Of a stretch of 14,561 bases of DNA, positions 3,890 through 12,970 are shown piece after piece (the first letter of the stretch is position 1; every line of letters starts with the position of its first letter). Under the pieces are notes generated by a model, which worked only from the letters and a program-made list of their open reading frames with translations, searched no databases and was not told the origin of the DNA. The translations under genes and the position numbers were made by a program. The DNA comes from a virus (lineage: Duplodnaviria > Heunggongvirae > Uroviricota > Caudoviricetes): IMG/VR virus record IMGVR_UViG_2534682108_000011; one strand, written 5' to 3'.

Positions 3890-4185
3890 CAGTACACCCC
3901 CACATCACGGTAAGCCGTCCAGAGCGCGCCAATCGTCATGGGTACGCGCGTTTTTGCGTTATCCGCTACCAGCTGGCGATTCTCGTACAGGTGAGCGATA
4001 AACATCATGCAGCCAATCTTTATGGCTGGCGTGAACTCCAGCCCGTCATCAAAGCGCCTGCCTATATGTATCTGGCACGCCTCAAGCGATGCGGCAATGT
4101 ATCCGCTGATTAACTGGTCTTCCTCGTCGCCATCGATGCGGCAATGGAGTTTCACTTCTTCCAGGGTGATAAGTTCTTCTGTCAT
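3889..4185 (-). CDS. Head-tail connector protein, gp6-like (98 aa)
   Basis: MTEELITLEEVKLHCRIDGDEEDQLISGYIAASLE matches the conserved N-terminal pattern of this family; start overlaps the adaptor stop. Confidence 0.7.
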   Translation of the reverse strand: MTEELITLEEVKLHCRIDGDEEDQLISGYIAASLEACQIHIGRRFDDGLEFTPAIKIGCMMFIAHLYENRQLVADNAKTRVPMTIGALWTAYRDVGVY

Positions 4186-7785: not shown

Positions 7786-8058
7786 TTAGCTGTCTGGGTA
7801 ATTACGCCATATTTCATCGCTTACACCATCTATACCCATTTCAGCATAAGTGCGATCTACTGCCTTTCTCAGGTCTCCGAAGTTATCCGGCGGCTCCGGT
7901 GGCTTCTGTGCCTTCCTGGAACATTCCAGCCGTCGCATCGTAACCTGATGCCGTTCCTTGTCTGTCTCCACCAGCAGCATGACTTCACCCCATCGCGCCG
8001 CCGCCCTCCGGTAAAAGCCTTTCGCCTCGAGTTCTTCCGCTATGCGGTCATGTACCAT
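7786..8058 (-). CDS. PerC/ANR-family-like transcriptional regulator (about 90 aa)
   Basis: MVHDRIAEELEAKGFYRRAAARWGEVM resembles the conserved N-terminus of PerC-like proteins (from memory). Start at 8058 chosen because of a GAGGGGG SD and no overlap with SSB; the 130-aa ORF-track start is a GTG inside SSB. Confidence 0.5.
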   Translation of the reverse strand: MVHDRIAEELEAKGFYRRAAARWGEVMLLVETDKERHQVTMRRLECSRKAQKPPEPPDNFGDLRKAVDRTYAEMGIDGVSDEIWRNYPDS

Positions 8059-8068
8059 CGCCACCCCC

Positions 8069-8479
8069 TCAGAACGGAATACCGTCACCGTAAGGGTCAT
8101 CGCCTCCCGCTGGTGGCTGATTACCCTGTGTGCCTGTGGTTTTGCGTCTGTTCCCGCCAGGAAGTGCCGCACGGGCACTGATTACGCTGTCTGCAATAAC
8201 CTGATAACCCTGCCGCGTTTCCCCATTCTGTCCGGTCCACTGGCTGACCTGCATCGTGCCGGATACGCTGGCAACGTCGCCTTTTTGATGTTTAGCCAGG
8301 AAGTCGGCCTGCTTACCAAATGCGATGACCGATAGCCATAACGTCGCCTGCCCATCCTGCGCCTGACTACATGGCAGCGATACCGCCATACGCGCCAGCG
8401 TCATCGGTGTACCCTTGCTGGTCTGTTTTACCTGCGGGTCGTCCACCAGCCGCCCGTAAGCTGCTATCTGTGCTGTCAT
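8069..8479 (-). CDS. ssb: Single-stranded DNA-binding protein (136 aa)
   Basis: OB-fold-like core, Gly/Pro/Gln-rich linker and acidic C-terminal tail ending DDPYGDGIPF (compare canonical SSB ending DDDIPF). Confidence 0.8.
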   Translation of the reverse strand: MTAQIAAYGRLVDDPQVKQTSKGTPMTLARMAVSLPCSQAQDGQATLWLSVIAFGKQADFLAKHQKGDVASVSGTMQVSQWTGQNGETRQGYQVIADSVISARAALPGGNRRKTTGTQGNQPPAGGDDPYGDGIPF

Positions 8480-8754
8480 GATTCCACCTCTCCGGTTTTA
8501 ACGTTGATGGTTGTTACCTGTTCCGCTTCGGCAATCTCCCGCTCTGTCAGCGTGGCAAAATTTGCCGCCGTCGTGGTCATGAATGCGCTTATCAGTTCGG
8601 GATGTGCTTTCGCGTATCCTTCCCCCGCGTGGCGGTCTATCGTTCTGATTGCCACCTTTAAAGCGTGCTCTGTCATGTCTAACGCGCGATATTTCGGTTC
8701 TGTTCTGTCTCTGCGTTTTTTGAGTGATTTATTAAATTTCCCTGAAGTGTGCAT
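8476..8754 (-). CDS. Hypothetical protein (92 aa)
   Basis: ORF with a GAGGGGG SD-like sequence upstream; stop overlaps the ssb start. No family recognised. Confidence 0.45.
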   Translation of the reverse strand: MHTSGKFNKSLKKRRDRTEPKYRALDMTEHALKVAIRTIDRHAGEGYAKAHPELISAFMTTTAANFATLTEREIAEAEQVTTINVKTGEVES

Positions 8755-8802: not shown

Positions 8803-9028
8803 TGTCTACCTTATCTACCTTAGTGGCCCTCATACCAGTAATGGCGCGGCTTTCAGCGGGGTAGAGTGCTTTTATCCACTATCTACCCCGTGTCTACCTC
8901 CCTGTCTGATTCAGGTAAAATCAGGTAGAGAGGGTAGATAGTGGGTAGACAGTAAAAAAAGGCTATCTACCTAACTTAATGCACTGAATTAAATGTATTT
9001 TTCTTTACTCAGGTAGACAGGGTAGACA
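8803..9028. repeat. Iteron cluster, putative replication origin: at least 10 copies of TCTACC / GGTAGA in both orientations, flanking an A/T-rich segment (about 8950-9010)
   Basis: Copies at 8803-8810, 8812-8819, 8859-8865, 8881-8887, 8891-8898, 8924-8930, 8933-8940, 8944-8951, 8964-8971, 9012-9019, 9021-9028. Ends 15 bp downstream of the primase stop. Confidence 0.7.
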
Positions 9029-11547: not shown

Positions 11548-11787
11548 TCACGCATAACCCCCCCCATTTTCACAATCAGCAATCAGGATGGCTTTAGCCT
11601 CATTCAGCGCCATATCCGCACTAAGTTGCATAACCGCCAGCGAATGAGGAACGAAAGCCCCTGCATATTCTGTTTCACTGGTGGCGTGCTTATGCGCCAT
11701 GTCAGCAATAACAGAAATATCAATAAGCGCGTGCATCAGCGTAGTGAGCGCGGCGGCTGCTGCGTCCGGTGTGGTTTTATTGCACAT
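11548..11787 (-). CDS. Hypothetical protein (79 aa from the MCNKTTPD start)
   Basis: Strong SD AGGAGG (complement of 11794-11799) 6 nt upstream of ATG 11787..11785; the ORF track's longer start lacks an SD. Confidence 0.5.
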   Translation of the reverse strand: MCNKTTPDAAAAALTTLMHALIDISVIADMAHKHATSETEYAGAFVPHSLAVMQLSADMALNEAKAILIADCENGGGYA

Positions 11788-11977
11788 GGCACACCTCCTG
11801 ACGAATACGGGCGGCGAATACAGCAACACAACCGGACGGGCAACGGCTACGCGCTTCGCGTTCCGTCCAGGCGGTTACGTGGATTATTTGAGATTCTCCG
11901 GCACTCAGTGCCAGAAAACGCCACACAAAGGCCGTTTGTGTGTGTACAAGGTGTGGTATATGATTTACGGCAACCAT
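11777..11977 (-). CDS. Possible small leader ORF (66 aa), or an untranslated leader with hairpins
   Basis: ATG 11977..11975 preceded by AGGAG at 5-nt spacing; its stop overlaps the next gene's ATG. It also contains a hairpin (11922-11942) plus U-rich tract, so it may be a regulatory leader instead. Confidence 0.25.
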   Translation of the reverse strand: MVAVNHIPHLVHTQTAFVWRFLALSAGESQIIHVTAWTEREARSRCPSGCVAVFAARIRQEVCHVQ

Positions 11978-12064
11978 AACGGCTCCTAGTTTACGTTGTT
12001 GGTTAGACGCCCCGTATGTGTTCCCAGCACTGCGGGGCGTTGATTTTTGTGTAATGGCAAGTAC

Positions 12065-12110
12065 AATAGTAATTACCATGTAGGTATAGTAATGAAGGGT
12101 AACTACCATG
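12065..12110. promoter_or_regulatory. Divergent promoter/operator region: direct repeats GTAA(T/C)TACCATG (12069-12080, 12099-12110) and ATAGTAAT (12065-12072, 12086-12093)
   Basis: Repeats read directly; the second copy overlaps the Arc-like start codon; TATAGT -10-like hexamer at 12084-12089. Confidence 0.4.
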
Positions 12111-12281
12111 TCAACACCATTAGAAAAACGTTCGCCTCCATACCAAATGCGATTACCGGAAGACTTCAGAGCGCAGCTAGAAGAAGCAGCTAAGGCCGAT
12201 GGCGACACATCTTTAGCCACTTGGATTAAACGCGTTCTCCGCAAAGAATTACAGCAACGCGGCATAGAACCCAAAGGATAA
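12108..12281 (+). CDS. Arc/MetJ-type ribbon-helix-helix DNA-binding protein (57 aa)
   Basis: MSTPLEKRSPPYQMRLPEDFRAQLEEAAKADGDTSLATWIKRVLRKELQQRGIEPKG: beta-strand (YQMRLPED), helix, DGDTS loop, helix pattern of Arc/CopG proteins. Below the ORF-track cutoff; found by manual translation. Confidence 0.6.
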   Translation: MSTPLEKRSPPYQMRLPEDFRAQLEEAAKADGDTSLATWIKRVLRKELQQRGIEPKG

Positions 12282-12323
12282 AAACTATCAGCGCCGTGGT
12301 GTGAGGTATTACGGCGCATTGCT

Positions 12324-12512
12324 ATGCAGGACAACACAATGACCGATAAAGAATTGACCAAAACATTATCACCGGCACGGAAAAGACGGCGCAGAAAGAT
12401 AGAACATGAATCAGAAAGATTCGCGCCATGTGCTTTTGCCCTTGAGCAATTCCTTAAAGAGTACAGGGAAAAGCGCTCATTGCAGGTATGGCAACGAACT
12501 GAACCAGACTGA
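12324..12512 (+). CDS. Hypothetical small basic protein (62 aa; may start at the internal Met MTDKEL)
   Basis: ORF downstream of the RHH gene on the same strand, followed by a strong terminator; KRRRRK basic patch. No family recognised. Confidence 0.4.
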   Translation: MQDNTMTDKELTKTLSPARKRRRRKIEHESERFAPCAFALEQFLKEYREKRSLQVWQRTEPD

Positions 12513-12607
12513 TTGCATTGCCCACCAGCCTGATAGCGGCTATCATCCCCGTGCTTATGTTTGGGATCACACACACAAACGGCGCAGCGGGTTATCTGTT
12601 CAGAAAG

Positions 12608-12636
12608 GCGGCTCCATTTCGGGGCCGCTTTTTTTA
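12608..12636 (+). terminator. Rho-independent terminator of the plus-strand RHH cassette
   Basis: 8-bp stem GCGGCTCC/GGGGCCGC (one G-U pair), loop ATTTC, followed by TTTTTTT. Confidence 0.7.
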
Positions 12637-12781
12637 TGCCTGAAAAACCCCAATTTTGTGGTTTTCCAGTCTCACCAGGGCGAACGAATCCCCGCCCACG
12701 TTCTGGCGTATATTCAATCTTCATGGTTATAGCTCTGTGTTCAGATGATTGATGTGTGGCGGCTGTGTGCCGCCAGCGTGA

Positions 12782-12970
12782 TTAATGAACTGCCTTGCAG
12801 CTATCCTTCCAGGCCAGAACCTCGGATAAAGACCAGCCAACGGAACGACCGCCAAGTTTACGACGTGATGGGAATTGTCCGGCCTTTTCCAGGCGGTAGC
12901 GGCATGAGCGGCTAAGGCCTGTTAGCTTTTCGCATTCTTTTTCACGTATAAACCGATCAGTGCTTAACAC
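12782..12970 (-). CDS. alpA: AlpA-family regulator / excisionase-like protein (62 aa, GTG start)
   Basis: LTGLSRSCRYRLEKAGQFPSRRKLGGRSVGWSLSEVLAW is the AlpA/Vis/TorI winged-helix signature; SD AAGGGG 5 nt upstream of GTG at 12970. Confidence 0.85.
   Translation of the reverse strand: MLSTDRFIREKECEKLTGLSRSCRYRLEKAGQFPSRRKLGGRSVGWSLSEVLAWKDSCKAVH

Follow-up and report, generated by a model that had tools for sequence, protein, structure and literature searches.

Control regions that can be compared with a switch in a Gram-negative phage satellite come from several elements. The Stl (Rpr) master repressors of SaPIs and PICIs (phage-inducible chromosomal islands) in Gram-positive cocci keep the early operon silent until a helper phage acts (PMC6092414). 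These are larger HTH proteins encoded next to int and co-oriented with it, transcribed divergently from the early operon and relieved by direct binding of helper proteins. In Gram-negative PICIs, AlpA activates downstream genes and no repressor is known; a global repressor is called 'unclear', and it is called 'a mystery' why these elements seem to use an activator while Gram-positive ones use a repressor (PMC6092414). In the immunity region of satellite phage P4 (PLL-vis-eta/kil, with the internal promoter PLE and the CI RNA), an alpA homologue is followed by a long ORF spanning the control region and the internal early promoter, a nested small C-terminal ORF and the primase operon, and the transcript that starts upstream at the alpA homologue is proposed to escape termination because eta is translated (PMC10111431). 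RHH (ribbon-helix-helix) repressors and antisense RNAs are combined in the immI region of phage P22 (Arc and Mnt, overlapping Pant/Pmnt promoters, sar RNA) and in the copy-number control of plasmid pMV158 (CopG plus RNAII).

Here, we analysed a window of 14,561 nucleotides, the whole stretch of IMG/VR virus record IMGVR_UViG_2534682108_000011, and focused on a cassette between alpA and the early operon that looks like the on/off switch of an E. coli phage satellite. The window belongs to a Gram-negative PICI of the capsid-forming, EcCIEDL933-like type (cf-PICI), a family described in 10.1101/2022.09.08.507074: the RefSeq annotation of a 100%-identical island of about 15 kb, inserted in tqsA, lists int, alpA and primase as well as its own capsid, protease, portal, head-tail and terminase genes, AlpA and DUF4222 were confirmed by Pfam, and islands of O157:H7 are 98% identical. 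An earlier note had described two plus-strand genes, encoding a 57-aa RHH protein and a 62-aa basic protein, with direct repeats overlapping the RHH start and a strong terminator, and had read them as a candidate repressor switch recalling Stl, distinct from AlpA activation, with a toxin-antitoxin pair as an alternative. We found all the described features in the sequence, so the observation is confirmed, whereas its interpretation was only partly supported. As in P4, a long frame runs from just after alpA across the control region, but here it is overlapped on the other strand by an RHH gene, two putative operators and a predicted antisense RNA (Table 1).

Table 1 Features of the alpA-to-icd-like region (positions are those of the whole window)
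Position	Strand	Feature
11777-11977	-	icd-like gene (66-aa protein), first gene of the early operon
11777-12724	-	315-codon stop-free frame from just after alpA through the whole cassette and in frame into the icd-like gene
11959-11964	+	predicted -10 box (TATGAT) of the antisense-RNA promoter, inside codons 5-7 of the icd-like gene
11971-12048 (approximate)	+	predicted ~77-nt cis-antisense RNA, complementary to the ribosome-binding site and AUG of icd-like; stem-loop 1 shows an anti-Shine-Dalgarno sequence (CUCC) in its apical loop, stem-loop 2 is an intrinsic terminator (hairpin 12006-12041 plus a U-run)
12040-12067	+	predicted RHH promoter: -35 TTGATT (12040-12045), -10 TACAAT (12062-12067); predicted start site inside O1
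12066-12079		putative operator O1, imperfect palindrome ATAGTAATTACCAT
12086-12114	-	predicted leftward early promoter P_L: -35 TTGACA (12114-12109, formed by RHH codons ATG-TCA-A), 17-bp spacer holding O2, -10 TACTAT (12091-12086)
12096-12109		putative operator O2, imperfect palindrome AGGGTAACTACCAT (core GGTAACTACC at 12098-12107), overlapping the RHH ribosome-binding site and start codon and the P_L spacer
12108-12281	+	57-aa RHH (Arc-like) protein, candidate repressor
12291-12317	+	conserved hairpin between the RHH gene and the small-protein gene
12339-12512	+	57-aa arginine-rich protein (62 aa if started at 12324)
12603-12636 (approximate)	+	intrinsic terminator (hairpin plus U7) ending the plus-strand cassette
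12782-12970	-	alpA (Phage_AlpA family), the published activator of Gram-negative PICIs, convergent with the cassette

The plus-strand cassette and its putative operators

The RHH gene is a true gene. We found 93 homologues of 56-58 aa in many Gammaproteobacteria, from Enterobacterales, Pasteurellaceae, Aeromonas, Oceanimonas and Gilliamella, with 18 invariant residues, and among 53 unique sequences there were no stops and a divergence by codon position of 0.27/0.14/0.58. The protein matched PHROG 228 'Arc-like repressor' at 1.5e-6, and the AlphaFold2 model (pLDDT 78) showed helices at residues 18-31 and 36-50 after a polar/hydrophobic N-terminal segment containing the conserved YQMRL, in agreement with the RHH superfamily architecture of about 45 residues forming an N-terminal beta-strand and two helices, although the strand was not formed in the monomer model. 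The top Foldseek matches were RHH domains of NikR, Arc, MazE9 and VapB, but all had E-values above 1, so that we use this search only as a consistency check. The protein remained below the curated thresholds of Pfam Arc (PF03869; 14.3 bits against a cut-off of 20.4, E = 0.038) and of the NCBIfam YlcI/YnfO family (NF041551; 18.7 bits against 30, E = 0.0014), and a search of solved structures with the RHH profile was uninformative, returning only designed helical repeats and a marginal AmrZ match.

The second protein is real but probably starts at 12339, as indicated by its homologues and the position of an AGGA ribosome-binding site. It matched PHROG 21027 at 1.6e-15, and its core showed a codon-position divergence of 0.10/0.04/0.32. 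All 36 homologues, which carry in-frame indels, are from E. coli/Shigella, and EcCICFT073 encodes an identical protein. The AlphaFold2 model has a disordered basic N-terminus and one long helix at 29-59. The hairpin upstream of this gene (-17.7 kcal/mol) is kept in the ten E. coli loci, whichever RHH allele lies upstream. The terminator folds at -22.4 kcal/mol (z = -3.2) on the plus strand, against -14.6 on the minus strand. Every gene annotated in the identical RefSeq island is on the minus strand, so these two are the only plus-strand genes.

The repeats consist of GTAATTACCATGT at 12069-12081 and GTAACTACCATGT at 12099-12111, 30 bp apart, and of ATAGTAAT at 12066-12073 and 12086-12093; GTAAYTACCATG occurs twice in the window against 0.07 expected, and 0 of 200 shuffles reached two matches. 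They are better described as two imperfect palindromes, O1 and O2. Each carries one mismatch in this window to the perfect palindrome seen in close relatives, such as ATGGTAATTACCAT for O1 in the close relative L002. Across genera, the centre of O1 lies near -36 from the RHH ATG in most loci and that of O2 at -5 in nearly all, 30-31 bp apart. The sequence of these sites changes together with the RHH beta-strand: GGTAATTACC goes with QYQMRL, TGTAATTACA with QYQ(I/L)RL, GGTATATACC with QFPMRL and GTGTAATTACAC with PFQFRL. The palindromes thus behave like operators, while dimerisation and DNA binding are inferred.

Contrary to the divergent arrangement given in the earlier note, the predicted promoters are face-to-face and overlapping. 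A consensus scan gave 9 of 12 matches for the RHH promoter, and a TAnAAT box abuts O1 at -46/-47 in the QYQMRL-type loci. The leftward promoter P_L, which faces the icd-like/primase operon, is near-consensus with 10 of 12 matches; TTGACA is present in 37 of 39 unique loci, Ser2 is always encoded by TCA, and TAnnnT lies at a 17-18 bp spacing in 34 of 39. The gene to the left is always the head of the early operon, either an icd-like gene or, in Xenorhabdus, the primase itself. The same architecture is shared by the prototype satellite EcCICFT073, with a different RHH allele, and by the Pasteurella element Pmp8.

Predicted antisense RNA and overlapping minus-strand frame

Two features had been missed in the earlier note, and both change the mechanism. 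One is a conserved, structured plus-strand RNA that is predicted to be antisense to the translation start of icd-like. TAnnnT lies exactly 7 nt upstream of AGCCAT (the complement of the icd-like start codon) in 39 of 44 unique loci, 14 of which have a TGn extended -10, and the overlapped amino acids vary while the T, A and T bases are kept. The plus-strand fold was better than the minus-strand fold in 41 of 41 loci (mean -32.4 against -21.0 kcal/mol), and 11 of 17 pairs showed compensatory changes, with many G-U cells and only 3 A-C cells. Because MAFFT misaligns the inner stem of stem-loop 1 by one column between clades, this stem was judged from per-sequence folds and not from alignment counts. 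Covariance model R1 matched 11971-12063 (+) and every independent E. coli island on the RHH strand. The region thus combines a predicted promoter, an intrinsic terminator, structure conserved with covariation on one strand and full complementarity to a translation start, as expected for a cis-antisense regulatory RNA, whose transcription is inferred. The Icd-like label had led us to expect a C4/CI-type immunity RNA; however, an Rfam scan of the whole window and a laxer scan of 11850-12700 found no known RNA family. The C4, isrK and c4-a1b1 models (RF01695, RF01394, RF03163) gave no match in the window even at E-values up to 10, while they matched the positive control P4 with 74.9, 60.8 and 44.1 bits.

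The other feature is the long minus-strand frame, which resembles the nested eta/kil arrangement of P4. An open minus frame covers 95-100% of the gap between alpA and icd-like in 8 of 10 E. coli islands, and two long open stretches cover most of it in the other two. Among 44 other unique loci, from outside E. coli, 25 keep the frame open or nearly so and 19 lack the spanning open frame. For the window, shuffling the non-genic 456 nt kept the frame open in 4 of 5000 trials, and resampling synonymous codons of the plus-strand genes kept it open in 375 of 5000; the open frame is significant against shuffles. The Icd-like domain matched NF033153 at 9.7e-17, at residues 266-309 only. BLASTP of the Icd-like protein against the ORF annotated as P4 'cI' found no similarity, and a Bro-N match in a relative's long frame was sub-threshold (E = 0.058). 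The window's AlpA (Pfam PF05930, 5e-18) matched only an 'AlpA family phage regulatory protein' (8c3t) among solved structures and not the Pseudomonas antiterminator AlpA; antitermination is therefore unsupported and remains speculation.

A candidate early-control switch and alternative readings

We interpret the region, with moderate confidence, as the early-control (immunity-like) switch of a cf-PICI. Sequence comparison shows the strongly conserved RHH gene, the two palindromes at fixed positions that co-vary with the DNA-reading strand of the protein, the placement of O2 in the spacer of P_L and of O1 over the predicted start sites of both P_L and the RHH promoter, the predicted structured RNA with its own -10 box and terminator exactly opposite the ribosome-binding site and AUG of the first early gene, and the minus-strand frame kept free of stops into that gene. 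Promoter activity, DNA binding and repression, expression of the RNA, translation of the long frame and the mechanism as a whole are inferred. In this view, RHH dimers in the quiescent island would bind O1 and O2, about three helical turns apart, and repress both P_L (the icd-like, primase and packaging genes) and their own promoter. Transcripts escaping repression would be blocked by the antisense RNA, which would stop translation of the first gene and so probably expose the transcript to polarity. When a helper phage turns on alpA, transcription from the alpA promoter would run antisense through the cassette; because this transcript would be translated along the long frame, as described for P4 eta, it would resist termination. 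It would also not need the icd-like ribosome-binding site, interfere with RHH expression and deliver ribosomes and RNA polymerase into the early operon. The override step cannot be universal, given the loci that lack the spanning frame, and published work found that AlpA over-expression alone induces EcCICFT073, so that a repressor is not strictly required by existing data. The arginine-rich protein would be an accessory found only in E. coli/Shigella.

The role of repressor proposed in the earlier note is partly supported by the comparative evidence, but it is not an alternative to AlpA control, as alpA sits right next to the cassette and the prototype AlpA-controlled island EcCICFT073 has the same cassette. 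A bolder reading, which we consider possible but rather doubtful, is that Gram-negative PICIs, including the prototypes EcCICFT073 and EcCIEDL933-type cf-PICIs, have a dedicated repressor system that was overlooked because it is mostly unannotated. It would consist of an RHH protein and a cis-antisense RNA, both encoded antisense inside a translated eta-like frame that is kept open not for its protein but to carry ribosomes across the switch, so that helper-activated alpA transcription overrides both repressors. Such a switch would code on both strands and link P4 and PICI control logic. The region offers a concrete candidate for the repressor called unclear, with a protein, two putative operator sites, three predicted promoters, a predicted small RNA and an overlapping reading frame; it is conserved from E. 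coli to Pasteurella and present in experimental model islands that are open to standard genetics. It also points to a systematic annotation gap, as RefSeq calls this stretch an Icd-like pseudogene and omits the RHH gene in this allele, and it is a rare case in which both DNA strands appear to be under selection over about 800 bases.

Other readings appear less likely. The RHH protein and the antisense RNA might act as a replication copy-number control, mainly after excision, to limit primase expression rather than to maintain quiescence or immunity, since the module always heads the operon holding the primase and an RHH repressor paired with an antisense RNA against the translation start of an initiator is the logic of pMV158. 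However, the module is not co-transcribed with the replication genes, and the long read-through frame and adjacent alpA point to a switch between two transcription sources; the two roles do not exclude each other, but we regard this one as unlikely. Equally unlikely is that the RHH protein only autoregulates an accessory cassette whose payload is the arginine-rich protein, for example a factor for helper interference or counter-defence, with the overlap with P_L having no regulatory role for the island. In E. coli, the small protein indeed follows either type of RHH allele and the cassette varies in gene number, and the zone between alpA and the replication genes is known to be dynamic (PMC10111431), but in most genera the RHH gene stands alone without a payload gene, and in 37 of 39 loci the TTGACA of P_L is built from RHH codons 1-3 with an invariant serine codon and O2 sits in its spacer.

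A type II toxin-antitoxin pair stabilising the island is very unlikely, although the small gene follows the RHH gene 57 nt downstream, some databases label homologues as HicB-family antitoxin, and in one locus two RHH-plus-small-protein pairs lie in tandem. The genes are not conserved as a pair, as the partner is restricted to E. coli/Shigella, while the RHH gene spans many genera and is usually followed directly by a convergent alpA or int. Only about 7 residues follow helix 2, leaving no toxin-binding extension, and this tail is invariant even where the partner is missing. The partner is a disordered basic segment plus one helix and had no Pfam match, and PADLOC matched none of the four proteins tested. 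We consider it highly improbable that only the minus-strand ORF is real, in the RefSeq view an Icd-like or Bro-like gene or pseudogene, and that the plus-strand ORFs are due to chance. PGAP annotates 12131-12724 (-) as an Icd-like pseudogene and no plus-strand gene here, and the minus frame is kept open. Nevertheless, the codon-position pattern, the constant length and 59-98% identity across genera fit the plus frame, the frame antisense to the RHH gene has stops in 24 of 53 sequences and lower amino-acid identity (0.58 against 0.74), and PGAP itself annotates the equivalent plus-strand genes in other alleles.

Comparison with described control regions

The proposed role is that of Stl, namely keeping the early operon of a satellite silent until a helper phage acts, but the layout is not Stl-like: the RHH gene is separated from int by alpA and convergent with both, the protein is not an HTH protein, and the promoters are face-to-face. 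YlcI/YnfO family proteins occupy the same position, strand and neighbours in allelic E. coli islands, including EcCICFT073, and also look RHH-like; a literature search returned no function for this family. The window's protein is a relative and positional equivalent but not a member, and the operators differ, for example GGTGTGGCCCAC twice in EcCICFT073. SymE/SymR and other type I toxin-antitoxin arrangements resemble the predicted ~77-nt cis-antisense RNA, which has its predicted promoter inside the first codons of a small, possibly toxic gene and covers that gene's ribosome-binding site and AUG, and in one locus the gene at that position looks SymE-like by eye. However, there is no Rfam SymR match, and the RNA predicted here also heads a long operon.

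In pMV158, the expression of a replication initiator is controlled twice, by an RHH transcriptional repressor and by an antisense RNA, which resembles the control proposed here, but copG is co-transcribed with repB, whereas here the RHH gene is on the opposite strand, and no homology was shown. In P22 immI, small RHH repressors act on palindromic operators at closely apposed, opposed promoters and a short antisense RNA is directed at a ribosome-binding site; the present protein scores below the Pfam Arc cut-off, and the proposed target is the replication and early operon of a satellite and not an antirepressor gene of a phage. The gene order and the predicted internal early promoter within a long ORF resemble P4, where an RNA immunity factor acts on the leader of the early transcript, as is proposed here. 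The CI RNA of P4 is on the same strand and is processed from the early transcript, model R1 does not match P4, and a search of the phage collection with the RHH protein returned four records that did not include P4. Here, the predicted RNA is instead cis-antisense and is joined by an RHH protein with putative operators, all encoded on the opposite strand inside the long ORF.

Genomic setting and the RHH gene

The island is chromosomal in E. coli, and a 100%-identical copy of positions 11700-12900 was found in E. coli O157:H16 Res13-Lact-PEA12-26, inserted in tqsA. There, RefSeq annotates int, alpA, two 'Icd-like' features, small ORFs, DUF4222, primase, ssb, perC, capsid, protease, portal, head-tail genes, HNH and terminase subunits, all on the minus strand, which is the gene set of a capsid-forming PICI of the EcCIEDL933 type (10.1101/2022.09.08.507074). 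O157:H7 genomes carry 98%-identical copies of 11960-12680, and sequence similar to the region studied here occurs in 1781 of 5426 complete E. coli genomes. The observation made in the earlier note holds, since both ORFs, both pairs of repeats and the terminator are located where it placed them, and GTAAYTACCATG occurs twice in the window against 0.07 expected. Its interpretation as a divergent RHH repressor switch is partly supported, as detailed below. RefSeq annotates none of the plus-strand features in this allele but calls an 'Icd-like pseudogene' on the minus strand, whereas in other alleles it annotates the equivalent plus-strand genes as 'YlcI/YnfO family protein' and 'hypothetical protein'. 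We therefore first asked which strand codes.

A search of 5.8 billion proteins returned 93 homologues of the RHH protein, almost all 56-58 aa long and at 59-98% identity, from Escherichia, Salmonella, Yersinia, Serratia, Xenorhabdus, Photorhabdus, Pantoea, Pectobacterium, Gilliamella, Pasteurella, Aeromonas, Oceanimonas and others, with 18 invariant residues. Sixty genomic loci were retrieved. In 53 unique gene sequences, divergence at the three codon positions was 0.27/0.14/0.58 and the plus frame contained no stops, whereas the antisense frame that RefSeq annotates has stops in 24 of 53 and a lower amino-acid identity (0.58 against 0.74), showing that the RHH gene is real. The family matches PHROG 228 'Arc-like repressor' (1.5e-6) but is sub-threshold for Pfam Arc and NCBIfam YlcI/YnfO. 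The AlphaFold2 model shows two helices after the conserved YQMRL segment, and its best structural matches are RHH domains, although none is statistically significant. In the Photorhabdus loci L035-L039, two RHH paralogues lie about 1.2 kb apart in the same locus.

Putative operators, opposed promoters and a predicted antisense RNA

We lined up the 130 nt upstream of the RHH start in all loci and observed two palindromes, centred about 36 nt (O1) and 5 nt (O2) before the ATG. Within a locus the two sites share one sequence type, and between lineages that type changes together with the RHH beta-strand, the behaviour expected of operators, although binding itself is inferred. In this window each site has one mismatch to the perfect palindrome found in close relatives: O1 is ATAG where the relative L002 has ATGG, and O2 is GGTAACTACC where the relatives L002 and L003 have GGTAATTACC. 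Repression might be weaker in this copy. A further operator-like palindrome, GGTAATTACG, lies at the 3' end of perC, upstream of the intergenic region before the capsid gene, but may be due to chance, as one-mismatch matches are expected about 1.9 times per window.

Operator core sequences by type of RHH beta-strand
RHH beta-strand	Operator core
QYQMRL	GGTAATTACC
QYQ(I/L)RL	TGTAATTACA
QFPMRL	GGTATATACC
PFQFRL	GTGTAATTACAC

The first three RHH codons, ATG-TCA-A, read TTGACA on the other strand in 37 of 39 unique loci, serine 2 is always encoded by TCA, and a TAnnnT box follows at a spacing of 17-18 bp in 34 of 39. This constitutes a near-consensus predicted leftward promoter, P_L, which in the window matches the consensus at 10 of 12 positions, with O2 in its spacer and O1 over its start site. 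A predicted plus-strand promoter abuts O1 on the other side. The two promoters are therefore face-to-face, with predicted start sites about 5 nt apart, rather than back-to-back.

Between the icd-like start and the operators lies a hairpin followed by a T-run, the stem of which changes by compensatory substitutions across genera, with double changes in 11 of 17 pairs. G-U pairs are common and A-C cells nearly absent, indicating that the plus strand is the folded one, and the plus-strand fold is the better one in 41 of 41 loci. Seven nucleotides upstream of the complement of the icd-like start codon, a TAnnnT box is present in 39 of 44 unique loci, often preceded by TGn, while the three amino acids encoded across it on the other strand vary. 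The predicted RNA has a median length of 77 nt and consists of a 5' stem-loop, whose apical loop carries CUCC or CCUC, the complement of the Shine-Dalgarno sequence of the target, followed by the terminator. A covariance model (R1) built from non-E. coli loci plus the window found the element on the RHH strand in every independently fetched E. coli island, in EcCICFT073 and in Pasteurella Pmp8, but returned nothing in a 45-kb control stretch or in P4. No Rfam family matches the window, whereas P4's CI and seqA were found as a positive control. In Limnobaculum allomyrinae (locus L057), the gene left of the RHH, whose start the antisense RNA would cover, encodes a 74-aa protein that by eye resembles the type I toxin SymE (AbrB-like 'ISGKWLEELGFTTGQAVTV'), echoing the SymE/SymR geometry. 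Elsewhere in the island, a long, near-perfect hairpin between a small ORF and the primase gene gave only a chance-level mir-135 match in Rfam (E = 0.35) and may be part of a replication origin.

Positions of the features in the window and, where a locus is named, in related loci
Feature	Position	Strand
Hairpin plus T-run of the predicted antisense RNA	12006-12048	+
-35 of the predicted plus-strand promoter	12040-12045	+
-10 of the predicted plus-strand promoter	12062-12067	+
Mismatch in O1	12068	
Mismatch in O2	12103	
-10 of P_L	12091-12086	-
-35 of P_L	12114-12109	-
Both plus-strand genes (RHH and small protein)	12108-12512	+
Conserved hairpin between the RHH stop and the small-protein start	12291-12317	+
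'Icd-like pseudogene' of RefSeq	12131-12724	-
Long stop-free frame	12724 to 11777	-
Start of the long frame, with conserved first residues	12640-12724	-
GC-rich hairpin just downstream of the alpA stop codon, and that codon	12758-12774 and 12782-12784	
Operator-like palindrome at the 3' end of perC	7797-7806	
Small ORF next to the long hairpin	8476-8754	
Long hairpin between the small ORF and the primase gene	8875-8956	-
Tandem modules, L064	2512-3968	
Tandem modules, L073	1005-2446	
RHH paralogues, L035-L039	about 2770-2940 and 4001-4156	
Long frame with weak Bro-N-like segment, L066	3400-3687	-

The small protein and the long minus-strand frame

Homologues of the second protein are confined to E. 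coli and Shigella, start at MTDKE or MTNKE and carry in-frame indels. The core shows a coding signature (0.10/0.04/0.32), and the structural model consists of a disordered arginine-rich N-terminus plus one long helix. Outside E. coli, the RHH is usually followed directly by a convergent alpA or int, whereas in E. coli the same small protein follows either this RHH or the unrelated-looking 'YlcI/YnfO' RHH alleles, and the copy in EcCICFT073 is 100% identical. Two E. coli islands, L064 and L073, carry the whole module of antisense-RNA element, RHH and small protein twice in tandem, one copy with a YlcI/YnfO allele plus a 75-aa paralogue of the small protein and the other with an RHH57-type allele plus a 67-aa homologue, and the model R1 matches both copies. 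The small protein is therefore an accessory rather than an obligatory partner, which, together with the very short C-terminal tail of the RHH, argues against the type II toxin-antitoxin pair that the earlier note could not exclude. Its basic segment could bind RNA, for example the conserved hairpin between the two genes, but this is only a guess. That hairpin is kept in the ten E. coli loci checked, whichever RHH allele lies upstream, and marks the point where allelic sequences become similar again, so it may be a recombination junction.

The minus strand is, however, not simply a mis-annotation. A 315-codon frame ends as the icd-like gene, and only its last ~55 residues match the Icd-like family. 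We checked the gap between the alpA stop and the icd-like start (660-2091 nt) in the window and nine other E. coli islands, which carry different RHH alleles and different numbers of plus-strand genes. A stop-free minus frame covers 95-100% of the gap in eight of them, and in the other two, two long open stretches cover most of it, whereas none of 500 shuffles matched any locus. For the window, shuffling the 456 non-genic bases kept the frame open in 4 of 5000 trials, and resampling synonymous codons of the two plus genes, which share their third codon positions with the minus frame, kept it open in 375 of 5000. Among the other genera, 25 of 44 unique loci have such a frame covering the RHH and the intergenic region and ending in frame with, or within 25 nt upstream of, the first early gene. 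Amino-acid conservation of this frame over the RHH is poor, hence selection seems to act on translatability rather than on the product. Its first ~16 residues (M..EY.PE.GRGFVRP) are nevertheless conserved between alleles, and in the locus L066 the frame continues into a weak, sub-threshold Bro-N-like segment (E = 0.058). The frame may descend from a Bro/eta-type gene. In this window alpA and the long frame are in the same reading frame, separated only by the alpA stop codon, while other E. coli islands use other phases, and a GC-rich hairpin (GGCGGC-TGTGT-GCCGCC) lies just downstream of that stop codon in the direction of alpA transcription.

Proposed mechanism and comparison with known systems

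We propose that in the quiescent state the RHH would repress P_L and its own promoter, while the antisense RNA would block translation of any escaped early transcript. Upon induction, the transcript from helper-activated alpA transcription would be translated along the long frame, cross the cassette in antisense and enter the early operon, without depending on P_L or on the icd-like ribosome-binding site. AlpA is the published activator (PMC6092414), but an antiterminator role for it is not supported, as no sequence match to the Pseudomonas protein was found among solved structures. Our comparisons establish the anatomy of the region and its conservation, whereas binding, repression, expression of the RNA and translation of the long frame are inferences from them. 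None of the PICI papers that we read mentions an opposite-strand RHH or this RNA, and one states that a global repressor is unclear (PMC6092414). The region is of fairly high interest because it makes this acknowledged open question directly testable, tempered by the fact that every functional step is still a prediction.

The individual kinds of control have precedents, and what we describe is a variant of them. EcCICFT073, the model island, has the same architecture with a YlcI/YnfO allele and GGTGTGGCCCAC repeats. P4 is the closest system in logic, and the long minus-strand frame corresponds to the arrangement described there, in which eta is a long ORF after the alpA homologue vis that spans the immunity region and the internal promoter PLE, its translation prevents termination, and kil is nested at its end (PMC10111431). 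P4 differs in using a same-strand processed RNA and has no match to this RHH. The pairing of an RHH with an antisense RNA is shared with P22 immI and with pMV158 CopG/RNAII, the geometry of the RNA is shared with SymE/SymR, and Stl shares only the proposed role.
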